Origin: Lingula anatina
Taxonomy: Eukaryota; Animalia; Brachiopoda
Assembly: GCA_051362555.1 (NCBI GenBank)
Contig: CM120641.1
Location: forward strand, 9,858,001-9,922,000
DNA length: 64,000 bases
Direction of reading: 5' to 3'
Part shown: piece after piece, positions 1 to 40,695 of the stretch
Layout: each line of letters opens with the position of its first letter
Position numbering within the stretch: the stretch's first letter is position 1
The notes under the pieces: model-generated
Told to the model about the DNA's origin: nothing
The model's database searches: none
The model's input: only the letters and a program-made list of their open reading frames with translations
Program-made: the position numbers and the translations under genes

Positions 1-3000
1 AAACAAGGTATGATTGGATTGAGGCAGTATTTTAAGTATTTAGACACATAAGTGTATTTTATAATCATAGTCTAGATCTAATATTTTTAAAGCAAAGTCT
101 CCCATGTTTTTTTTTTTTTACGAATAATTTTGCAAGGTAATTGTAATAAGTCAGTTTCCAATCAGTGTGTATGGTATTTAACTTTTTTCATTGAATATCT
201 TTTTTTTTTTAAGAAAAATTGCTATGTTTAGCAGATTATTACTCATTTAGTTCAAAATACCTCTTGATGCAATGTGGTTTTTTCTCTTGCAGACACCAAA
301 TGGCAATGTGGAAGCCAAAGTCATGTGTTTCTACAGGCGCAGAGACATTTCAAACTCTCTTATCATGTTGGCAGATAAACACCAAAGTAAGAATCTTATA
401 ATTGTTGCTTCTTTTGTGCCTTGCTTGACAATGGTGCCTTGCATGCCCCATGTGTATTGAAATTAATTCAAGTTTCTGTAAAGAAAATTGTTACCTTTCT
501 TTTGATTTCAAACGGAACTTAGTAGAAAAACGTTGTTTTTCTCTAAGATTATGCAACTGGAATATACAATATCCTAGGTTATACAATGCACCTACTTTAG
601 GTACACTTGAAGATGACCAAGAAATGGAGGAAAATGATGATGTATCAGAGCAGCAAAGGCATCAGCTCAAGCACAGAGAACTTTTTTTATCAAGACAAGT
701 GGAGACATTACCTGCCACGCATATACGAGGAAAGAGTACAGTAACTTTATTGAATGAAACAGAGCTGCTAGCATCTTACTTAAATAAAGAGGTAATTGTT
801 AATATTAGGTTCGATGCAGAAGTGGTAGAATCTTATATGAACATTGCAGCGTGAAATGGCTTGCTTACCTGGAATTTTGGAAAACATTTTAAAAGTATTA
901 CCAGTTTTTATCATTTTTTGTGTTTACATTTTCATACAATATCCATAAGGCTGTGAACAGTATGCTTCAGTGAAGTGTGTGATGAGAAATACACAGACCT
1001 GTTCTGAGTAAATGTATGAAGTAATTTCCAATCCAGCTGTGACATTGAAATTTTAAGAGATTAAATAGGTGTGTATGGAATAATAAGAGGAAACAATACA
1101 GGGGTAAAGTTACAGACAAATTTATTTATGTCCCCATGTTAGCATTTTAACAATGGTAAAATGGCAAAATCTAATTATTTTACAGGACACATTTTTTTAT
1201 TCACTGGTGTATGATCCCCAACAGAAAACCTTACTGGCAGACAAGGGGGAGATCCGTGTGGGTGGAAGATATCAAGCAGATGTACAACCACTACTTAAAG
1301 AAGGTAAGTTTATTGTGCAAGGAATTTAACAGACATGGGGGTTTTTGTAGACAAAGTCCAGACATAGATATTTAAATAGACACCCACATGTTTAAATTAT
1401 AATGTTCTGTCATAGGTTCCCAAATTTTTTAAAAAAATTATTGTTTGCTTCAGCAGTTTTGAATGTGGACTGGCCTCTAAATCATGATCTAAGTGCTGTA
1501 ATTATTGTTTGAAAATTTACCCATTACATTTGACATTTAGGTTGAAAGAAATTTTAAGTTTAATTTCACTGGATATATGCATTTGAAATACTAATATGCA
1601 GTTATGTGTATGCAGTTAAATCCAAGGAAAAAATACTTTTATGGTAAATTGAACAAGTATTTCCTTTCCTTGATTTTTATTTTCCCTTTGCAGGTGAAAG
1701 TGATGGAAGGAAGATGGAAGACCTTGAAGAACTAGTCTGGAATCCAGAAACACATTTATCTGACAGACAGATTGACCAGTTCATGGTTATAGCCAGGCAA
1801 GTATTAGCAGTTTCAAAACAGTGGGTCAGATTAGGATTTAAATGTATTTTACACCAGTATTTCTGAGAAACTAAAAATGTTTGAGATAATTGAGATTGTG
1901 ATCAGTTAAAAGACTTCTGACAGAATTGATGAGAGAGATAAAATGAACAACATTGTCAAAAGAGAGAGGGAAAAAAGAATTCCTGTATATTTTCAAAAGG
2001 GTACCTACCATTATTTTGACCATTGATTCATTGTTTATGTAATATAACTTTCAGGGCTGTCGGGACCTTTGCTAGAGCACTTGATTGCACAAGTACAGTA
2101 AGACAACCAAGTTTACATATGAGTGCTGCTGCTGCTTCCAGGGATGTCACATTGGTATGTAACACCTCATGACATAAAAAGGGCTGGGTATTGGTTTCTT
2201 TATATCGGACAAAGAACCTGTTATATAAGGCAAGCCTTATGAGGACTGAAATTATAAAGAACTTTGCTCACAAAGGAAAATTTTCAATGTTTCATGCCAT
2301 TTTATCCAGAAAAGTTACATGAAAGCTGATGCATTTTTTTGTGCTGCTACAATACAATGGCACTAAACCCATGTTTTTGCCCATACATCAGATTCGTACT
2401 TCTGTTTGTTAGTTCCATGCCATGGATACCCTCCACAAACACCAGTACAACACAGCCACTGCCATCTCCAGTCTGGTGCCTCCAGGGGGACCTGTGCTGT
2501 GTCGAGACGAGATGGAAGAATGGTCTGCCTCAGAGGCCAACTTGTTTGAGGAAGCCTTGGACAAATATGGGAAAGACTTCAATGACATTCGACAAGATTT
2601 TGTGAGTAAATCATTGTGCTGGAAACTGGACAGACTTAAATTTTTTTCTCTGGTTTGTTGTAGATATTGAAGTGAATGATGAGAACTTTCACAGACCTGT
2701 TCTGAAAGAACGAGGTGTAGATTTCTTCAATCCAACCCTGACACTTCAAATATTATTTGAAAGTTTTTCATTTTTCTCAATTATTGACAAAATAGATGTT
2801 TCATTTTTGAGTCAGTGTACTTAAATTGCATTATTGTCCGGATTTTAGGATTAATTATTTTTATAAAGCAAGTGCTTTAATGTTGATTTTATTTCATTAT
2901 GCAGCTTCCCTGGAAGACTTTGAAGAGTATTGTGGAATATTATTACATGTGGAAGACCACAGATAGATATGTGCAACAGGTAAGATACAGTTCCCTTTGT

Positions 3001-6000
3001 TGACACCATTGCCTTGTATCAATGTTATCTGTGATTAAATATAGGTGACAAATGGTTTCAGTTTATTTTGTGTTTGGAGTTGACATTATTATTCTAAATT
3101 ACTCTAAATTACTTGGCTCTAAAACTCCACATAAAATGAATTTAATTTTTATTGCAGAAAAGAATTAAGGCAGCAGAGGCTGAAAGCAAATTGAAGCAGG
3201 TCTACATTCCCAACTAGTAAGTTTTTATAATTGAAATTTATAAAATTGATAATGGGAAATGCTGTTTGTAACATAAAGATTACCCATATTGTTGATTGTA
3301 CTCTCAAGTAGATAATGGTTTTGATACAACAGTAGTAACGTTGACTACTTTTCTCAGTAACAAGCCAAATCCGGCCCAGTTGCCCAACAATAAGAATGGT
3401 TCTGCTGCGTCTGCTGCTGCTGGTGCTGCTGCCCCTGGGGCAGGGGGAGAGGGTGTGCTCTCCAGAGCCTGTGAAAGCTGCTACAGTAAGTATGACTTTT
3501 TGTATAAGTAGGCATGGTTTAACTGTAATTTTGCAAGAACATGAAATGTCTGTTTCATTGATAATCTTCTGTTGAAGATAAGTGAGAATACATATTTAGG
3601 TTTCTTGGTTTTAGGCTGATAATGTATAACTCTTTTTGGAAGATTATGCAATCCAAGTTAAATACCACATTATCAAATAACGGTGACAATCTGTCTTGAG
3701 AAATTGGAATATCCTTTTCTCTTGTACATTATTAAGACATATAAAATTTTCAATATTTAACATGTGCATATTTATATGTTTGTTCATTTTGTAATTGCCA
3801 CCTTTTCTCAGCTGCCCATTCTTCCCAGTGGTATGCCTGGGGTCCTGCCCACATGCAATGTCGGCTCTGCTCCAGTTGCTGGATATACTGGAAGAAGTAT
3901 GGAGGGCTTAAAATGCCTACAAGACTTGGTAAGTAAACTGTTATAGGAGAACTTCTTTTAAAAATTTAAATAAAGACATTATGTGAAGATAGAACATAAA
4001 GGTGCTATGTTGAGTGATTGACTTTTAAACATGTTGGGTATGGATACAAGTATTTGGAATATCTCCCAGAAGGTAGAAATATCCATGATAAGCATTTTGA
4101 ACAATTTTCATGAGTGTCTGTAGATATTGAGTGTACCAGGGGTTACATTTGATGTCATATGTAGCTGCTACCCTGATGTTTGTTTGGTATATTTTGTAAT
4201 GCATGACTGTAGTCTCCCAAATTTTCTTCTATTTATTTTCCATCTTTCAGAAAGATGGGTCAGCTTTTTTTTTATTATAATAGTTGTTATACTGTACTCT
4301 ACCCTGGTTCTGCCTTGTTTTAAGGATGTATTTCACTTAAATTTTGATTTTAAAAGAGTGACCATAGAGCAACCTTTATGTGCTTTGGATAATCTCATTT
4401 TGCATGTTCTAAATGAACTGTAGAGCAAATATCATGATATAATATTGAAAAAACTTTGCAAGTCTTGATGTTTTTTTAGAAAACTTTTAGTCTCAGGGTT
4501 TAGCTTTCAATTTAGTTTCCTTTATTTAAAAATGAGCATTTTTCAGTTGTGTAGTACATGGTTTGTGTTTATGTTATGTCATTGATCTACTTTGGGCCAA
4601 ATATAGATGAATCTCTGCATTGCCAATACTGGTGTGTAGATGATTCAATGGCCAGTTTAATCCAGATTCTGAAGTTGATATTTTTTTATTTTGTTCAAAT
4701 TGTGGATAAAATAGAAGGTTATTTGGATATAAAATTTTAACTAATCACAAAAAGGTCCAGTGGCTGATTGAAATGAAGTCAAAATTGAATGATAACATGA
4801 TATGTCATTATGATCAATTTTTCTGTCATTAAGTGTAAGGGAAAAAAGAAGTATAGAAATACCTTACTTCAACCAAAAATGTGTCAACTTCACAATGTGG
4901 AACCTCATTGGGCTCAGTCTAGCATTTTAAAAGATTTTTACCATTAGCTTTGAGTGTTCAGGCAAGTTGATTATGTTTGGCCAAGTTAAAAACTGATTTA
5001 CTAATAAGAGATATAAAAAAGATTATTTGGAACGAATAACAATTTCCTCCTGTTGCGAAAGGAAAAAAAAAAGAAAGAAAAAAAGATTGAAAAGAATGAA
5101 AGATTGAGCCCAGTTATTGCTTTGAGTAAAGATGTTTTCTTTTCACATATGTGTACTATTTGTCCTGTTTAGATGGAGAACGCCCAGCACCCAACCAGAG
5201 GCAAGGTTAGATGAACATGTTTATTGCATAAGACTAGAAGTATATATACCAGTACCAGTATCTATGACTTTCACAATTTCAGAGGAATACATAATATAAT
5301 AATTCAATTATCAGATATTTAGAGCTTGTACTTTTTATTTGCATTTTAGTTCTTTAACTGTTTTCCATTCACTTGCTGTTATTTAGACCCCACCTCCAAG
5401 TACGTGCTGTAAATGTAAAGCTTTAGTTGTAGGCTTTTGAAGTGTTTGCAATGTTAACTGTTGTAAAATGGCTTATTTTGTTGATGCCTATAATGGATGT
5501 GATCTTTATAAGTATATTTAAATATATTTGGAATGAAATAATTATGCCTCATCTTCCTCTTGCCACAGCATTTTGCTTAGCCCTCCTTTTAATTTGCAAG
5601 TTGTGTGAACAGTGGATAACTGTAAAATACATTTGTGTCCAATTTTATAAGTTTTTAAAAGCTCACATTTAGGACTTTGGCGAATTTGGCTTTAAATAAA
5701 AAAAAAAACCAAAGACATTTTCCAAATTTTACTCAACATAAGTTGGATATACTTAGTCCTAGCCATTATTTGGATAATAGAACACCCATGCTTTAGTTTA
5801 GTTTTCAAAACATACATTTGTGCGCGGTGAAATTTAGTTTTTAATCAAGAGGCAGCATTTTTTATGTGATATGGCCCTTGAGAATGTGTCAGCCATAGTC
5901 TATTTTGCACAAAGAAGATACAACACAAGATGAGGCATAATGTTGCGTTTAAGAAATATAATATTTGTAAAGGAAACTTTAGGCAACTGTGGGACTAGTG

Positions 6001-8883
6001 TTTCTCTGGAACAATGGCTTTAGAATAGTGCTACAAAGTAAGCCAGATTGCAACCATATTGGAAGCAATGTTAGTGCAGTATGTAACATTTTGTTTTTTC
6101 CCCACAGAACGCCTGGCTCAGATGGCTGCTTTGAGGATGCACAAATGTACTATCAGTGGGTGTGGCAAGGTAAGAGTTGAATGGATGATGTTTATTGATG
6201 AATCTAAGGTGAATAATTTAGTATGGCTACAAAACACCATGGACAAGTAATTGTGTGTGATGTTTGAAGAGGCATCAACTGTTCTCTTCAAAGCAAATGA
6301 TTATAATTTTCCCCTTTATTCTTTTATTTAGGAATTTAAACTTAAAGCCCATCTGGCCCGCCATCTTGCCACTGCACATGGCCTAGCAATAAGATCAGGA
6401 AGTCCACGACCAGTCATGAAAACACGTGCTGCATTTTGTCTGGTTACTACACCTCTTACTCGAATCTCACGCCGTGTGTGTAGGGACATACTGAAGCCTC
6501 GTAGGGCGGCACGCAGTCCATTCACCCCAATCAATATAGCAGCAATAAAGCAGGAGTGTAAGTTGTCACATATTTACTGACATGGCAGATGAAATTGTGG
6601 AATTTTATACAATAAGAGCTGAATCATTTAAAACGCGCCTTTTAGATCTGGTACAATATTTTGAGGGGATGAAAAATGTTCATAGTAGGCTTTAATATTT
6701 TTGATAAAACATTACCCACCCACCATCACCACCAATCACACACACAAAAGTTTCAAGAAGATGGGTTATATATAATTTTGAGCACCCTGTTACACATTAG
6801 AACAATTTGATGGAAAAAATGAAAGAAACCTCGTCTTTTTTTACAGGCCAAGTCAGATTGCCAGATGCAGCCAAGAACATCACCATCAAGCCCAAGCCAC
6901 AGATCACCATGGAGAAGGTTGGCGCAGGCTTGAGTCTTGATGTTAGTGGAGAACATCCTCCGTGGCTGGCACACTCTGAGAAAAAGGCGGAACCAGCCAG
7001 GTATGCCTACCCACGCCCATCTGCTGAGGAGCTCAACCAATTCTGTAAGTAGCTTAATTTTGCTTTGTTTACAAAAGTTGCTAGCACGAACCCAGGGCTG
7101 AAAAATATGACACAGTCTACGCTTATTGTTTTTAGGGCTCTTCATTACATTTTATATGTAAAATTTTGACATCAGTACTGTGTGATACATTAAAAAGCTT
7201 TAGAAGTGTATGATGAGAAATTTCACAGACCTGTTCTGAATGAAATGTGTTGAATTTCACAATCCAACTCTGACACTTCACTGTTATTTATAAATTGCAT
7301 TTTATTACTCCCTTTGATACAGATTTTGAACTGCTAACTGGGAAGTGATGGCATGCTGCATTTTAATAAATTGATTACTTTACACTACCTACATACATAC
7401 TCAATATTTTTATCCCTGCAGCTAAATAAACAAAAATATGATAGAATTTGTTTCCTTGCTATCATGTAAGATGCCAAGTTTTGGATTTTTCTTAGCGATT
7501 TCTACCTTCCATTGCTTTCTCAGGGGAGCGCCAACATGTCCATGTGGAGGAAGAGGAAGACATGGAGGGGGAGTCGCCTTCTGCCAAACCATCTATCATG
7601 AAGAAAAGAGGTTATGATCAAGGTGGACTAGAAGGTACATGAAAATGCACAAATGATTAGCCAAAGGGGTACATAACACTATAAAATATCAAGGGACTTT
7701 GATTGGGATGATGAACATGATCTTTGATTCAATGAAATATTTTTTGTAGCCATTTTGACAGAAGTGCATGATGAGAACTTTCACAGACCTGTTCTGAAAG
7801 AATGAGGTGTAGATTCCTTCAATCCAACCCTGACACTTCAAATATTGTTTTAACAGTTCTCCAGAATGTTTTATTCTGCATTTATTCTCAGTGAAGTGGT
7901 ATGATTTAATTTAAAAAAATGATTCTTCCCTTTGTTTAGGACCCCCAGCAAAACGTCCAACCATGGGAGTCATCAGACAGTCCAGCAGCATCAAACAGGT
8001 AATGTGTTTTTGTTGTAAATCATAAACGTGTGTGAAATGTGAGCATAAAATATGGCCAAGTGGTTTTCTGAAACATGCAGGTATTGATGCTGAAAATTTT
8101 TGATTGGAATTCCAGTCTGCAGTTTATGTGATGGGTTGGGAGGTGGAAGGTCAGGAGGGTTTTTCGTTTAAAATCTAGTAAGTCATCAACCATAGACAAA
8201 ATTGACTTTCAATTTTGATACTTTCAATAATTTTTGACAGCAACACTCCTAGCTCATCAGTATCTTTTTGTGTTGCATGTTTCAGAGGGGCCCGTACATG
8301 AACGGACGTGGCAAACCAGGGACCAAGGCCACAAGGAAACTGAACTGGGTGGATGCACCTGATGATGTCTTCTTTTTAGCAACAGATAACACAAGGCATG
8401 TCTTGCAAATACTAACTCAGTTTATGTATATTTACTTACAATCATGAAGGGTGTGCACAGATGCTTACCCCCCCCCTTAATATTGAATTTACCAGGTTGT
8501 AGAAAGTTTTTTGAATAGGCATGATGAAAACTTGATGAGACACCTGAAGTTTGTGATGAGAATCTTCACAGACCTGTTCTTAGTGATCGGTGCTGAGTAC
8601 ACAATCCAACTCTGAAACTTCTGCAGTTTTTAAGTCATTACTGTTGAAAGCTCATCTCACTTGTGCATGAAATATGAACAATGCAGTTTTCTTAAATATA
8701 GAAAAAAATTATCCTTCAACAGCTTTGATTATTCTTCGTCTTATTAATTTCAGACGCCTTCGCAAGCAACTGAATGGGACCGAATTCCGCAAAGCAGCTC
8801 GCAAACCTTGGCGCGTTCTTGAAAATGTAAAATGGCCAAGCAGCACCAAAGAACAACAGGAACCTATAGTTATTCTTGACTAA
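1..8883 (+). CDS. MTA1: Metastasis-associated protein MTA1/2/3-like (NuRD subunit; BAH-ELM2-SANT-GATA ZnF-C2H2), 5' part outside window
   Basis: Spliced exons approx. <1-7, 293-386, 601-791, 1186-1302, 1693-1796, 2055-2153, 2413-2601, 2905-2979, 3158-3216, 3358-3485, 3812-3928, 5173-5205, 6108-6169, 6332-6557, 6847-7044, 7523-7633, 7940-7997, 8286-8395, 8754-8883. Peptides [69 protein letters not shown]...[23 protein letters not shown] and the C-terminal EPIVILD match the MTA family. Confidence 0.97.
972..1046 (+). ncRNA. Intronic box C/D snoRNA copy 1 (degenerate D box)
   Basis: C box GTGATGA 979-985; guide CACAGACCTGTT then D' CTGA 1004-1007; second guide CAATCCAGC then variant D box GTGA 1039-1042; weak terminal stem. 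Confidence 0.7.
2669..2747 (+). ncRNA. Intronic box C/D snoRNA copy 2 (SNORD25-like D' guide + SNORD69-like D guide)
   Basis: C box ATGATGA 2676-2682, TCACAGACCTGTT-CTGA (D' 2702-2705), CAATCCAACC-CTGA (D 2738-2741), terminal stem GAAGTG/CACTTC. Confidence 0.92.
7203..7279 (+). ncRNA. Intronic box C/D snoRNA copy 3
   Basis: C box 7210-7216, D' 7236-7239, C'-like GTGTTGA, guide ACAATCCAAC, D 7270-7273, stem GAAGTG/CACTTC. Confidence 0.92.
7761..7839 (+). ncRNA. Intronic box C/D snoRNA copy 4
   Basis: C box 7768-7774, D' 7794-7797, D 7830-7833, stem GAAGTG/CACTTC; nearly identical to copy 2. Confidence 0.92.
8546..8621 (+). ncRNA. Intronic box C/D snoRNA copy 5
   Basis: C box GTGATGA 8553-8559, D' variant CTTA 8579-8582, C' GTGCTGA, guide ACAATCCAAC, D 8612-8615, stem GAAGTT/AACTTC (compensatory change). 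Confidence 0.9.
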
Positions 8884-9530
8884 AAGATTATTTGTGTAAA
8901 AAACTGATACGTTTCTCTGGTCTGCACTAAGTGTGGGCTATATAACTCATACAAGAACAAATGTAATTGTGCATTACTTTTTTTCACCAAAGTGCATGTA
9001 AACAGTACCTAGAATGCAGGATTTGTAGGAATACATCATTTTTTTGTGTGAAATAAGTAGTAGAAGCAGAGTAGACCTGAAAATGTACAAGTTTGTAGCT
9101 ATTGAAAATTGCGCTCATATTTATTGGAAAGTATTGCAGGGAAGAAAAGTCATACAGTTTGTGGTCTTTATTAATCTGACATTCACTGTAAAAAATACAA
9201 TCTTTGATAATGTCCATGTGGATTTTAAACAAGCTTGTAAATCTTAACATATTACATGATCAAAATAGCATGGATTTCTAGGAATAAAGGCTTCATTTTC
9301 AAAACTACTAGTTTGTAACTGAAAAAGTGAAATTTGCTGCTTGGTTGCCTTGATCACTTTCAACATAATTTATTTCAATTTGTTGGTCTTGTTAGGCTGA
9401 TGTAACCCAAGTGCAATTTCTTGCAATGGATGTCCAAAACAGTCTGAAATTTATCCAAATGTCCTGTGCTCAGTATGACTACATACTCTCAAATTTAATC
9501 AAAAATTCTTAGTATCACATCGGATTCTTG

Positions 9531-12360
9531 TTAACTAGAAGTTTGGGAGAGCTGAGCCACAAAGCTACTGGTACTGCTACTATGGGCAATATTCCTCTGC
9601 TGTGCTCGCACATACTGCTGCTGTATCCTGTAAGCTTCATCATATGACTCGACAACCAAGTTGGACCTAGGTCCAGTTTTCCATGTGTTACCTTGCTCAT
9701 CTATGACTGCTGCTTCTATACATATGGTATGTATACCAGGGACAGGGAAAGTGAGCAGGAAGTGGGCACTGAAGTAGTCGTTGTGTGGCTCTGTTACTTG
9801 GGTCATAGAATTGGAAGGATTTTCTGATAACTGGAAAGAGAACAAGAAATTCCTTATTACATTTCTTATTATACAGTAGTTTTAATATAGATAGGAGGAT
9901 AGCCCAACCTCGGTAAGAATCCGAATCAACCCCCCCTTCCCCTGGAGTAGTTCAAACCCCAATGTTGACCAATACCTTCATGTCCCCCAGTGCTTGCCCC
10001 CTGGTCTGCATTACAGAGTGGACACCCAGCTGTATACTGTGAATCTTGCGGAACAAGCCAGGGTGCTTGCCATGCTGTATGACGCCCTCTATCTTCAGTG
10101 TGAGATGTGTGTCGTGGGTGATACTGACAGGCTCCGTGACACTCCTTGGCTGGGGTGAAATAGCCAGCTAAAATAATACAATATTTAAAAAAGTCTTACT
10201 GACAGTTTGGTTTTGATAAAGAACTTTTCTCTGAACTACTAAAAGTAAAACTAGTGAAATGCTGTTTGTTAAAAAAAAAAAACCTTAATCATAAAACGCA
10301 TTAGTTCCAGTATTTGTCATTTTACTAACACCTGGATAAAGATTGTTACACTAAATTTCTTACCTTGATAGAAGTTGCCTGAAGACTTTGGTAAAAATAT
10401 CTTGGAAAACACAATGGAACTTGAATCAAGGATAGCACTGTCCTCTCTAAGAAGTCCATATGCTGAAACATTGAGAACTAAATATGTCAACTAACACAAA
10501 ATTGGCAGAAAAATGAAAATCAAGCTCTTCAATAATAATTTTGCCAATAACACATTTCTGAAATAATTATAGCCAAATCAGTTTGCTTAAATCTATATGA
10601 CTCATGTACACACCTGATAGGCAATAGGCAGTTCAGATACTGTCCCTTCCAAAGTTTTCTGTAAGTCTTGTAAGATGTCCTGGCAGGCTTCATACAGTTG
10701 CCAACTATGTGTGGGAACTTTCTGGCTCAACCAGGACAGACTATCACTCAGATAGCCACGGCTTTAAAGACATTTTAAAGAGATTATTAAGAGAAAATAT
10801 AATCCTAAAAAAATAAGCAATTTTAATTATAAGAAATGAATTATTTCCATTTGTTAGTATTTTAAAGTAGGAATTGACCCTAGGCATTCATTTCTATTTC
10901 AATTTCAATATCAAACCAAATACTTCTCTTTTTCAGTTAAATTTCAAAATTCTCAAATGCAGAAATAAATAAGCTGACGATTCACTTGCCTGTTTTTACT
11001 TTGAAGAATAACTCTCAATGCCTGTGAAACAATGAGACAGCAGTGCTGTAATCTAGACACATTATCAAGGAATTCCAATTGTACATTGCATTATCTGACT
11101 ATATTTATGAGATATATCATGAAAATGCCAGCAGAAAATATGAAATATACATCCAAATATCAAGTGTCTGGTTTAAAAGATATGCTCTTATAATAAATAA
11201 TGTGTTTTGGCTTCATTTCCTTTTATGCTATGATCATATGATGATAAAGGATACAGTTGCAAACTGCCAAGTGACACAGGATCTGCATCAAATGATGCCT
11301 GACTCAGGTGACCATAAGATGTATGGAGATTCTCAAATTCACTGGCACACTGCTGAAGCTGTATTACAAGAAGAAGTGAATCAATTAAAAATAAAGTGTC
11401 TCTAGTACATCATTAAATCATGATCGATAGGTCCTCACATGTCCTGTAAAGTGAATTTTAAAGTAAGCAGCAAAGCTTACAAATATACAGACTGCAACAG
11501 CGATGACCATGAAAGACAAAGTGACCTGCATACACTGTCTGTACATAGAAAGCCATCACTACTACAATACATACTATTATTGAGAGGAGACTTGATCATA
11601 TAAATGTGAAACTAAAATACTGTCTCCAAGTCACAGACCTGTCCTACCACTCTGCCACATCTCTGTATCTCCTGTCCTGTTGTCATGGCAATGTTGACAG
11701 CAATGGCCGGGGGTGGGTTGGTGCGAAAGCTGCAGCAGGCTTTCAGCAAGTGAGCACAGGCCTCTAACTGCTGAACTCTCAGCTTTATGAAGTCACACTG
11801 GAAGTGTAAGGGATGGGTAGGGGTCCCTGCAGCCTGGAAATAATTTAAGCTGCACTTGGTATCATTGCAAAATAGTATATTTTACAAGCCAAAGAAATAC
11901 TGCTTTATTTAGTTTTGTTTAGTAAATAAATGTCTTTAAGTTTCAAGAAAGGGATTTAGAAAATGCACCTTTATAATTTATATTTGAAATAATGGGGCAG
12001 GAACGAGGAGCAACAGAGCAAGCTTTTGGTGGAGACTTTTACAAGCAACAAGAGCAACATGAGCTTGTTTATAAAGAAATGTTCTAAATACTAAAATTCT
12101 CTGTAAGAAACTTGTCCAGCCACTAATGCAACAAATAAAAACCAGACCCAACACTACATGTTATCAAAAACTTACCCTGAGTGAGGAGAGACCCCTATGG
12201 TAGTATACTGCAGCCTGTGTTATACACTGCATCATTGTAGGGATGTCATCTTCTACTCTTCTCAGGCTGGTCTCTCCTATACAAAACTCATGGAGGCTGG
12301 TCAGCCAGAACAGGAACTGCTCAGAAGAGACCTTAAGAATAAATGATGACAACCAAATTC

Positions 12361-37000: not shown

Positions 37001-40000
37001 AGTTTACTGAGTACTAAATGTATTTATTACAATGACAATGACAGGCTCTCTAATTCACATATGCAATATACAGGCTTTCAACACATATCATATATCACAT
37101 GATAATTTTGCATTTCTTTCAACAAAGGAAGGCATCCTAAAAGGTTTTCTAGAAGGGGGTGGGATGGGAGCAGAAATCCTACCTTTCTTCACTTCACTAT
37201 AATATTGTGCAAAAAAAAAAAAAAGCTTCAGGTGGCAGGGAAGGGGGGGTTACAGCTGTGCACTTTTTAACCTACCTTTAAATCACTGGCAAATACACTT
37301 GGATTATAAAAGCAAAAATCCTCAATCCCAAATAAATCACTTCTCACTAAAATGCAATTACAGATTGTATTCTTTCACTTTAATGAAAATGAGAAATAAA
37401 TTTAATCATTTCTAAGTGGTTTTGTCATTTGTCTAGCTTTCAAAGAGATCTACTAAGTGATTTTGCATTGCAGATACTGACATAAGCAAATGAGCTTTTA
37501 AAACATTGATTTTTGTCTTGACACCCTTTGATGTTAGGAACGCTTAATCCAATCCAAATGGCTTTGTGTGCGATGATCCAGGTTGGCCTAGTATGCTATC
37601 TAATTCTACGCTTTTCTTCTACACCATCACATAAAACTTCATGAGATTAAAAACAGCCACTGAATGACTATCTACACATAAAACTTCATGAGATTAAAAA
37701 CAGCCACTGAATGACTATCTAAATAAAAAATCTGCCTAAAAGATTTAAAGTAGTTTTGATTAGTAGTTTTGATTAGTCTGACAAAGATGAAAAAAAGCAA
37801 TTACCTTCAATGCAATATGAAAATCAACAGTGGAATAAGGTAGTGTATATGGTAAACCTTCCTTTAAAAAATTAATTTCTAACCCTAACATAAAATACAA
37901 AAATCAAACAACTGGTAACTGTTTAAGAAGTAATGTTATCCATTATTATGTGAAAGAATAATATGTCTATGAATAAAGATGGGTTTCTCATAAAGCCATA
38001 TGCATCTTGGAGGTTCATCTTATGTTATAATAACAATTATCTATGCTGTGTACACGTATACCAAACAATACATAACAAGGACATAAGATTGGAATTACCA
38101 AATAAAAGAACTCAAATTGTTTTTAACAAAGTAAATCACATCATTGAAATCAATGACAATAAAGAGGCATAAACAATTCAACAATAATTTCAATTGCTTT
38201 GGAAAAAAAGGGGAAAAATACACTAGCAAAGATTTTACACTCCATACTGAATCAAACTATCATCACTGCAAATCATACCTGGTGTATGCCTGGTATAAGT
38301 AATAACCAATAGTAAATGGGGAAATAATGGCCGGAGCTACCACCTGGCTGAACTGGTCGCACATACGGTCAACATCCTGTGTGATTCGTTGGTCACTGAA
38401 AATGTAGTTATCAACATCATACATAAAATTGATCTGTTTTTCACAAAAAAATGTGGAATTAAAAACTGCTATCAAAATTGAAAATACTGCCAAACAAATA
38501 AAAAAAAGCTAGCATTCTGGGCCCAGTTTTATAAAAGGGCATTTAGCACTAACAGGCTTTTAGAGAATTTACTCACCAGTAAGGCTTATATACCATTTAG
38601 TGCTAAATGCCCTTTATAAAAATGGACCCTTTTAAGTACTGAAAACTACCTGCAGACCTAAGATTAGAATAAAATCTTAAATACCAATCTTAAATATCCC
38701 TATATGTGAGGTAAGTAAGGCCTAGTATAACTTGAACTTTATGATAAACTAAAACTTATCAATAGTCAAATTTACAAAAAAAGTAATAAATAAATAAAAA
38801 GGAAAATTAAATTATTAATCATAACTTACGGATTGTCCACTCTGTTTTGCAGTACATTTATCTTATAGTATAAAATATCCTTGAAGTACTTGGAGTGTAT
38901 ATGACGAGTGATTAGCCCCCTCCAGGTCACATAGAGCACTGATGCTACATAGGTGCTTGTGCTGATAACCTGAGAAAAAACTTCAAATTGTATTAATCAG
39001 AATCATTTTTCTATCCCAAAATGAATGCATGTGCTTGTTCTTGTCTGGACAACCCTATGTTATGTCTGAATGGATATTTGAGTTTATGGAGATATTTCAC
39101 AAAATAAATATGTACAATAAGAAAATGTCAAACTGGTACATAAAGTTATACATTTGATAAAAATATGAACAACTCTCATTTTTTCTTATTATTTGTATAC
39201 TTTAACTAAATTGAGGTCATTCAATGGCCTGAGAGACAGTTACATTAGTACAATTTGGATGTGTGAACATGTAGAATTACAGAAAATACTTGCTTGTACT
39301 TAAGAGAAACCTACTTACAAATGCATTGGCAACAATTAGGCCAAGGGCAGAAATAATCAGCACTCGGAAATTGTAGATGTCCTTGTCTCCAAACACCTTA
39401 TAGAATCTGCTTGGAACTAGTCCCACAAAATAGATTACCACTTGACCTTAAAAAAATAACAAGTAACTAAATTAATTAATTAATAATTTAAACTTTAGTT
39501 TTCAAAGAATTTTCAACAAGTACTATGTTCAAGTTATAATACATTTCTGACTTTTAACCACTCGAGTCCATTCTTAAAAAGAAAGAGAGAAAAACATACC
39601 CTTTACCAGGGCCACAGATTGACTTTTCACTAGATATTCACATATGTGTCTCTGGCTAATTCATGGCACATTTCTACTTTGTTAGAGAAAAGTGCACATA
39701 TAAATATTAATTTGTGGCTCTGGTAGAGGGTAAGAAAGACATAACTGTACTCTTCAACACTTTGCTGTCTAAAATATTGCAGATAGTTTTTTAAATGAAT
39801 TATCAATTTTCTAACTTAGTTTTTTTTAATTTTTTCATATTTTTTAAAAGGGTTATGTATTTACCTAACAAACCTAACAGCAACAGGGTTATGGTCAATA
39901 ATACTGTAACATTGGTCCATTTAGGATACATTATTCTCAACAGCTTCAACAATCGCTTGGCAAACAATGTGTTGAACTTGAGGCTGAAATTTTTTTAAAC

Positions 40001-40695
40001 AAGCTCTGATCATATATGCTATGTAATATATATCAGACTTTTAAAAAATCACTAAAAATGAATTTTTCTTCAATTTGGTAAGTTTAACGAGACACTCCAC
40101 AGGAATTTTCAACCAAAATAAATTTTCCTGGGGTAAGGAGCAATTTTCTCCTACTTGAGAACTATTGCTTGACCCATCCCTGCACTTGTTTTACTTCATT
40201 TTAATTCAATAATTTAGTTTTAAATGAATGTCCAATCAAATACACAACATCTGCCATCACTCACATTGCCTCCTTTTTACACAAGAAAAAGGCAGGGTGT
40301 TTTGCATCGTTGCCCTGCACCATAAATAAAACAGACGTTGTAAGCTGACAATGGGAAACCTAAGGAGGTTGAGAATATAATGACCACACAAGGTATGCTT
40401 CAGATAATCATTGGTATAAAGGGTTTTATTGTTTTCAGAGTCTGGATTGGAATATATAAGAACCTTTAAAAGGGCATGAATATGACTGTGGGAGATTTTG
40501 AAATGCATGGAGAGAACCTCTAAAGATTCATTTTGGCTGAAAAATCCCATGGATGGGTCCTTCATATTTTAAGGCAATGTATCTCACATGAAAACCAAAC
40601 AATTGCAAGCAAAGCCTACACTGTATACATTATTTTTTTAAAAATACACAATATAGTTACCTCTGCTCATGCAAGCCCATTGATAATGGCTTCAT
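31268..40695 (-). CDS. ABCD4: ABC transporter subfamily D member 4 (lysosomal cobalamin transporter)
   Basis: About 17 coding exons. Peptides [24 protein letters not shown], Walker [26 protein letters not shown], signature [27 protein letters not shown] and SVGHR. Start at 40695 ([11 protein letters not shown]) is inferred from phase; an upstream, probably non-coding exon may lie near 42400-42520. Confidence 0.94.
34049..34094. repeat. (AC)n microsatellite
   Basis: Direct observation; lies just after an ABCD4 donor site. Confidence 0.95.
37628..37721. repeat. Perfect 47-bp tandem duplication
   Basis: CACATAAAACTTCATGAGATTAAAAACAGCCACTGAATGACTATCTA x2. Confidence 0.92.
38519..38629. mobile_element. 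Short MITE with ~33-bp terminal inverted repeats
   Basis: GGGCCCAGTTTTATAAAAGGGCATTTAGCACTAA ... TTAGTGCTAAATGCCCTTTATAAAAATGGACCC. Confidence 0.8.

Follow-up and report, generated by a model that had tools for sequence, protein, structure and literature searches.

Five intronic box C/D snoRNA copies in an MTA gene of Lingula anatina with predicted guides for both 18S G1490 and 28S G4494 equivalents

The U25-type small nucleolar RNAs (snoRNAs) of the box C/D class direct methylation of G1490 of human 18S ribosomal RNA (rRNA) or of its equivalents, and comprise SNORD25/U25, yeast snR56, Drosophila Me18S-G1620, Arabidopsis snoR19, Dictyostelium CD1/DdR1 and Neurospora CD19/CD41 (Rfam clan CL00049, RF01298, RF01559). 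A different family, SNORD19/SNORD69 (RF00574), acts on 28S G4494. In the available rows of Table S4 of PMC11014333, Gm1490 is methylated in all six tabulated species, and Gm4494 is methylated in human, Xenopus and Arabidopsis. The vertebrate guides have separate hosts, SNHG1 for SNORD25 and GNL3 for SNORD19/69, as a first-pass annotation of the DNA studied here had stated and as the accessible parts of PMC6466398 and PMC6984369 confirm. Here we describe a stretch of 64,000 nucleotides (nt) from the brachiopod Lingula anatina (assembly GCA_051362555.1, contig CM120641.1, positions 9,858,001 to 9,922,000, forward strand), hereafter the window, in which these two guides are found on the same predicted RNA. 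The window very probably contains five paralogous box C/D snoRNA genes, one in each of five introns of an MTA gene, that are predicted from sequence to guide ribose methylation of the equivalents of 18S G1490 (from box D') and 28S G4494 (from box D).

The translation of the host gene after splicing is identical to residues 33-732 of protein P0001, whose source name is metastasis-associated protein MTA3 of Lingula anatina and in which the BAH, ELM2, Myb (SANT/Myb), GATA and MTA_R1 domains all score above the Pfam cut-off (five of five). The exon at 2413-2601 matches human MTA1 in the PDB (E=3e-31), and the start of the second exon, at 601, was taken from RNA junction reads. The elements occupy five of the 17 MTA introns in the window. 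The gene and the parts of each copy, with stem lengths in base pairs (bp) and with +1 denoting the base next to box D, are the following, all on the forward strand:

293..8883, forward: MTA-family gene (metastasis-associated protein, NuRD subunit); 18 exons within the window, the first 32 codons lying upstream
972..1048, forward: copy 1 (degenerate), intron 792-1185; box C 979-985, D' guide 992-1003, D' 1004-1007, D guide 1029-1037, box D GTGA 1039-1042, 4-bp stem
2669..2747, forward: copy 2, intron 2602-2904; box C 2676-2682, D' guide 2689-2701, D' 2702-2705, D guide 2728-2736, +1 = C, box D 2738-2741, 8-bp stem
2715-2721, forward: C'-like GTGTAGA of copy 2, identified by eye
7203..7279, forward: copy 3, intron 7045-7523; box C 7210-7216, D' guide 7223-7235, D' 7236-7239, C'-like GTGTTGA 7247-7253, D guide 7259-7268, +1 = U, box D 7270-7273, 6-bp stem
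7761..7839, forward: copy 4, intron 7635-7939; box C 7768-7774, D' guide 7781-7793, D' 7794-7797, D guide 7820-7828, +1 = C, box D 7830-7833, 6-bp stem
8546..8621, forward: copy 5, GC-AG intron 8396-8753; box C 8553-8559, D' guide 8566-8578, D' CTTA 8579-8582, C'-like GTGCTGA 8590-8596, D guide 8601-8610, +1 = U, box D 8612-8615, 6-bp stem

Pairing of the guides was computed on three vertebrate rRNA motifs, human and Xenopus, that carry marked methylated bases in the supplement of PMC6984369. The portion of this supplement at hand marks Gm1490 in human 18S (...AAUAACAGmGUCUGUGAUG) and gives the corresponding marks in Xenopus 28S (...GCGUUGmGAUUmGm...). The D' guide forms 13 contiguous bp with the 18S motif (12 in copy 1) in all five copies, with dG values of -20.4 to -22.0, and its +5 position falls on the G of human 18S Gm1490, as in the U25/snR56 type. 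The D guide forms 9 bp with the 28S motif in copies 1, 2 and 4 and 10 bp in copies 3 and 5, with dG values of -12.7 to -14.6 across the five copies; in copy 1 it reads CAATCCAGC and contains one G-U pair with the target. Its +5 position falls on the G of 28S Gm4494 (old number G4464), as in the SNORD69/19 type. Both target assignments of the first-pass annotation are thus upheld, the marked G pairing at +5 in the human motif for the D' guide and in the Xenopus motif for the D guide.

Box C (RUGAUGA) is perfect near the 5' end of all five copies. Box D at the 3' end reads CTGA except in copy 1 (GTGA), and box D' reads CTGA except in copy 5 (CTTA). The pattern of RTGATGA followed by two CTGA boxes, which had been reported for five introns, therefore stands with respect to the five intronic copies, and its full consensus is present only in copies 2, 3 and 4. 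A terminal stem in kink-turn register measures 8, 6, 6 and 6 bp in copies 2-5 and 4 bp in copy 1; 28 of the 30 stem cells are paired, against 33-53% when the partners are slid. The compensatory change described earlier for the stem of copy 5 (GAAGTG/CACTTC to GAAGTT/AACTTC) is real, though it consists of one pair, is equalled in 111 of 500 shuffles and is not significant alone.

Boxes and guides have 32 of 37 columns invariant, compared with 6 of 28 in the spacers (Fisher p=1.3e-7, a value that is indicative, the copies being related), in agreement with the earlier observation that the former are largely conserved and the latter diverged. Within the D guide, 8 of 9 columns are invariant versus 2 of 22 in the adjoining spacer, showing this guide to be under selection. 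The guide pair at a spacing of 14-44 nt, with at most one mismatch in each guide, occurs five times in the window and not once in any of 200 shuffles.

All five copies are sense-oriented and lie one per intron of a single gene, with none in the remaining 55 kb or so of the window. A covariance model built from the five copies, which recovers these training copies by construction, detected no sixth copy in the 64 kb, the next match having E=0.086. That match, at 40498-40572, lacks the guides and was rejected, as was a D' guide match at 11631-11643, which lies antisense in a coding exon of INTS7, has no boxes and is ascribed to chance. Both guides together gave no pattern match in metagenome and viral contig collections, which hold little animal DNA and so do not bear on distribution. 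The 50-nt flanks of the copies have a mean identity of 0.47 versus a background of 0.46 +/- 0.05. Three positions separate copies 2 and 4, against 12-25 in every other pair, which indicates a family of mixed age. The copies likely arose through local intron-to-intron duplication, with copies 2 and 4 being the latest or having been made alike by gene conversion.

By established C/D biology, each RNA would be released from the debranched intron through exonucleolytic trimming to protein-protected ends. Box C, box D and the terminal stem would form a kink-turn on which Snu13, Nop56, Nop58 and fibrillarin would assemble, and fibrillarin would methylate the target base opposite +5. Full activity is probable for copies 2, 3 and 4, and the same probably holds for copy 5. 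The CTTA at box D' of copy 5 may be tolerated, given that CTTA is also found at this box in a Tetrahymena U25-type sequence; the row of the SnoBIRD supplement that holds this sequence shows a high abundance-like value, yet is labelled pseudogene by SnoBIRD. With a G for C in box D and a weak stem, features of snoRNA pseudogenes according to the accessible text of PMC12309372, copy 1 is likely decaying or weak; its D' half is intact. By eye, copy 1 has an alternative outer helix between 960-971 and 1043-1049 (TTCAGTG with CATTGAA, seven pairs, one of them G-U), which is out of kink-turn register and may partly replace the weakened stem.

RNA sequencing (RNA-seq) data were taken from six (X1, X2, X4, X5, X6 and X7) of nine runs that carry the same species label, with four runs per comparison. 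Removal of all five host introns by splicing is seen in four of four runs; in run X1 the junction reads for the host introns of copies 1-5 number 102, 64, 114, 286 and 213, in this order. Box D lies 106-250 nt from the 3' splice site across the five copies. Because the libraries are long-insert RNA-seq and lose RNAs of 70 nt, the absence of reads over the copies means little. Runs X4 and X5, both long-insert, have no reads in the host introns within 7000-8800. Over the same region, the sole intronic depth of run X6 consists of 64 + 86 letters (150) in two bins over copy 4. If the two mates are equal, this depth would represent one 75-nt fragment at 7761-7835, a weak hint of a processed product: 7761 is the first base of the stem and 7835 lies 2 nt past box D, as for a mature snoRNA.

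Some further reads in the host introns were noted. In run X2 (poly-A), six sense reads have their starts within copy 3 and extend no further than 7426, and no reads lie upstream of them in this intron. This stretch (7215-7426) has an AATAAA near 7365, a strong acceptor-like TTTTTATCCCTGCAG ending at 7421 and, right after it, an A-rich run (near 7425); no junction to 7422 is listed among the RNA reads. The reads could represent a 5'-trimmed and 3'-extended precursor, a snoRNA-capped polyadenylated RNA, or internal capture at the A-rich run. The same run has ordinary unspliced reads at 8403-8524. Relative to the window, the RNA runs carry different letters at many exonic sites between 250 and 9400, several of them fixed within a run, which implies that the sequenced animals are polymorphic or diverged with respect to the assembly and that intronic reads could drop out at the 95% setting.

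Several observations weigh against the assignment of the copies as double-guide snoRNAs. At 9-10 bp, the D guide is at the short end for an antisense element, and Lingula rRNA may differ from the vertebrate motifs on which the pairing was computed. For Drosophila, yeast and Dictyostelium, the rows at hand of PMC11014333 list the G4494 equivalent as lacking the methyl. No match of any copy reaches an Rfam gathering score. The folding energy of all five copies is not distinct from that of shuffles (z from +0.39 to -1.61); unremarkable thermodynamic folding is expected of protein-stabilised C/D RNAs. As for the reads, the long-insert libraries contain no pile of small-RNA ends over the copies and zero depth over copy 5 in four of four runs, and the hint in run X6 comes from one inferred molecule in one of four runs that could derive from copy 2.

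The short D guide and the loss of box D in copy 1 would also fit U25-type single guides for 18S G1490 whose D element would be vestigial or act on another RNA, leaving the 28S site unmethylated by the copies. Drosophila offers a precedent: its U25 (Me18S-G1620, in Uhg2) has a single target, and the tabulated rows of PMC11014333 show the fly G4494 equivalent without a methyl. Such an explanation leaves unaccounted for the constancy of the D guide relative to its spacer, the sole change in which keeps a G-U pair, and the 3' ends of copies 3 and 5, which equal those of an Arabidopsis snoR34 element and of Xenopus SNORD69, the latter being active on the 28S site in a yeast assay in the accessible part of the published account; we regard it as very unlikely. 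Less credible still, to the point of a bare chance, is that a snoRNA with its gene at another locus gave rise to the elements as inactive retro-copies or as a small dispersed repeat. The pseudogene-like features of copy 1 point in this direction, and the copy search covered the 64-kb window of the genome. A dispersed repeat is, however, at odds with five sense copies placed one per intron and none in the other 55 kb or so, with changes that avoid boxes and guides, and with flanks at background identity; the one compensatory stem pair also speaks against it.

The Rfam alignments divide the double-guide RNAs by halves, the 5' half with the D' guide matching snoU25, snR56 and DdR1, and the 3' half with the D guide matching SNORD69. 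The best scores relative to the gathering scores were 31.2/50 for snoU25, 29.7/54 for snR56 and 19.4/39 for SNORD25; SNORD69 scored 28.2/37 in copy 2 and 25.6/37 in copy 3, with no match listed for copies 1, 4 and 5. Copy 1 matched snR56 (23.9 bits) and DdR1 (23.7 bits). Copy 2 matched snoU25 (E=1.9e-5), SNORD69 (E=0.0012) and snR56 (E=0.016), and copy 3 matched DdR1, snoU25, SNORD69 and snR56 at E values of 0.0005-0.008, all below gathering. Copy 4 matched snoU25 (E=0.0066), and copy 5 matched SNORD33 best (E=0.0009, via boxes and stem), followed by snoU25 (E=0.019) and SNORD25 (E=0.043). SNORD19 appears in no Rfam scan result for the copies. Matches to SNORD33, SNORD60, SNORD70, SNORD91, snoR38, snR61, ceN30 and others were discarded, as they reflect boxes and stem and not guides. 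The Lingula RNAs thus appear to work like U25 yet fall outside Rfam membership by score, and default Rfam thresholds miss chimeric guide RNAs of this sort.

The first-pass annotation had further proposed that a NuRD gene is an atypical host and that the arrangement couples rRNA methylation to MTA transcription. MBD2 and CHD4 are subunits of NuRD. Human MBD2 hosts SNORA37 (PMC11737211), CHD4 hosts scaRNA11 and CHD8 hosts SNORD8/9 (PMC6466398), according to the parts of these papers available. These guide RNAs resemble the Lingula copies in residing in introns of NuRD or other chromatin-remodelling genes, and differ in belonging to other RNA families with other targets and in having one or two copies. 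Broad expression is the main requirement of a host in the accessible text of PMC3511168. Because guide shuffling, host switching and NuRD hosts are all documented, neither the atypical nature of the host nor the proposed regulatory coupling is supported, and MTA likely serves simply as a broadly expressed host. The stronger version, in which the placement in MTA is a selected regulatory link whereby NuRD/MTA transcription sets rRNA methylation and the five copies amplify the dose, is highly improbable. In favour of such a link, intronic snoRNAs are necessarily co-transcribed with their host, and four of the five copies appear intact. Against a selected link, U25-type RNAs reside in a different host per lineage (SNHG1, Uhg2), two other human NuRD genes host unrelated snoRNAs, the available part of PMC11014333 reports no linear correlation of host and snoRNA level in Drosophila, and the constrained-drift model set out in the available part of PMC3511168 accounts for the pattern.

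Human MTA2 is presumably located on 11q12, at most a few hundred kb from SNHG1. Human SNORD25 is placed at hg18 chr11:62379613 in the accessible portion of a published table. If this location of MTA2 is correct, U25 may have stayed near an MTA gene; equally, the proximity may be due to chance.

A third target of the Lingula RNAs was also considered. In the accessible text of PMC6984369, SNORD19 and frog and fish SNORD69 modify both 28S-G4464 and 18S-G683, and one nucleotide of the antisense element eliminated activity on 18S among reptiles, birds and mammals; available rows of PMC11014333 list Gm683 only for human and Xenopus. The 3' end of Xenopus SNORD69 is CAATCCAAC-T-CTGA and that of the Rfam SNORD69 consensus is CAAUCCAAC-C-CUGA, and we infer that the +1 base is the nucleotide starred in PMC6984369, as far as the available part of that paper allows the two to be equated. 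This base is T/U in copies 1, 3 and 5, as in Xenopus SNORD69, and C in copies 2 and 4, as in the Rfam consensus. Pairing with the vertebrate G683 motif extends over 8 contiguous bp in copies 1, 3 and 5 and over 7 in copies 2 and 4. Provided that the motif is retained in Lingula 18S rRNA, the number of targets would be three for copies 3 and 5 and two for copies 2 and 4, a somewhat doubtful but real possibility that the first-pass annotation had missed; the third target would fit AGUUGGAU at the G683 equivalent of Lingula 18S. A further-reaching and unlikely scenario is that the Lingula RNA is a surviving ancestral bilaterian guide for all three sites (18S G1490, 28S G4494 and 18S G683) that became divided into SNORD25 and SNORD19/69 in vertebrates, and that the Lingula paralogues independently repeated the U-to-C switch next to box D that ended the 18S-G683 activity of amniote SNORD69.

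Additional features of the MTA gene and its surroundings were recorded. Two of the 17 MTA introns, 1797-2054 and 8396-8753, are of the GC-AG type with a GC donor, the latter being the host of copy 5. A few reads in four of four runs (5, 5, 7 and 2 reads joining 7995 to 8751) omit the exon at 8286-8395, whose 110 nt are not divisible by three; such skipping would place copy 5 in a longer intron and change the reading frame of the last exon. Between GATA and R1, the stretch 6108-6360 encodes a C2H2-like zinc-finger motif (CTISGC...); it is also present in protein P0003, and the Pfam search did not report it. A Pfam search of long exons at 9100-55000 identified INTS7 (minus strand), COMMD1, an acetyl-CoA synthetase, an ABCD-type transporter (minus strand) and a BAZ1/ACF1-like gene with WAC, WHIM, PHD and bromodomain regions. 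RNA reads on both strands at 9124-9400 suggest that the 3' end of INTS7 meets that of MTA. No snoRNA was found by the Rfam scan in the introns of the neighbouring genes in the window. Between 8700 and 64000, the only Rfam match is a mir-1245 hairpin (32.5 bits versus a cut-off of 79), which corresponds to a near-perfect inverted repeat at 38528-38620, matched on both strands, and is probably a small transposon-like hairpin.

In the open literature available, including parts of PMC8583080, PMC11542601, PMC8817022, PMC2780460, PMC2656528, PMC2655684 and PMC2770079, we met no pairing of G1490 and G4494 guides, no Lingula snoRNAs and no MTA gene as a snoRNA host; most subscription papers and the C. 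elegans, amphioxus and mollusc catalogues fall outside this scope, and supplements may list further pairings. The main text of papers on Schistosoma and Trichoplax non-coding RNAs, as far as accessible, contains no U25, SNORD25, SNORD69 or HBII-210. The combination of two known guides with an MTA host is apparently undescribed. As kinds of arrangement, the double guide, the five intronic copies and the chromatin-factor host are none of them new, and no new mechanism is indicated. The assignment predicts that a lophotrochozoan carries a methyl beside the A-loop, on the 28S G4494 equivalent, and perhaps another on the 18S G683 equivalent. The two sharp motifs ease a survey of animal genomes that would distinguish ancestry of the fused RNA from a fusion confined to one lineage.

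The Lingula copies and the U25-type guides are alike in the ACAGACCUG core in the D' slot, in the 18S G1490 equivalent as the target and in a length of about 65-70 nt. They differ in host (SNHG1 or Uhg2 versus MTA) and in the second target, which is predicted to be 28S G4494 in Lingula and for which none is listed in the portions consulted of the human, Xenopus, fly and yeast tables. In the available sources for other eukaryotes, the G1490 guide is partnered with 18S Um1448 in Arabidopsis, with 17S Um1456 and 26S Gm2132 in Dictyostelium CD1, and with 26S Cm1489 in Neurospora CD41, all unlike Lingula. The zebrafish U25-type row of the SnoBIRD supplement ends in CACAATATTTATCTGA, which by eye shares 11 of 16 letters with copies 3 and 5; these letters include the four of box D, the guide core differs, and the macaque row has no such likeness. 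The zebrafish end is a faint hint of ancestral pairing. The pairing could be ancestral, a brachiopod fusion, or a guide newly arisen in a free D slot.

With SNORD19/SNORD69, the Lingula copies share a guide for 28S G4494 in the D slot and several intronic copies in one gene. The 3' ends of copies 3 and 5 are identical to Xenopus SNORD69 (CAATCCAACTCTGA) over 14 nt, and those of copies 2 and 4 are identical to the Rfam SNORD69 consensus over 16 nt. The GAAG/CUUC stem and the spacer after box C were dismissed as proof of SNORD69 or U25 descent, being common to the unrelated SNORD91 and sn3071. SNORD19/69 differ from the Lingula copies in having no G1490 guide (in the Rfam consensus and the Xenopus sequence) and in their host, GNL3 versus MTA. 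According to the accessible records, Arabidopsis snoR34 (At1gCDbox13.1) combines a guide for the same large-subunit site (Gm2918) with one for 18S Um1273, and Neurospora CD17 combines it (Gm2875) with one for 18S Am154; in both, the large-subunit guide lies in the D' slot, and the ACAAUCCAACUCUGA element of snoR34 matches the 3' ends of copies 3 and 5. In the model put forward in the accessible part of PMC6984369, each half of a snoRNA evolves and is shuffled on its own, and snoRNAs relocate among introns and genes. The Lingula pairing supports this proposal that each half evolves and moves as a unit and provides a clean invertebrate case of guide-module shuffling: the U25 and G4494 guides are partnered differently in vertebrates, plants, Neurospora and Dictyostelium, and are paired together in Lingula.

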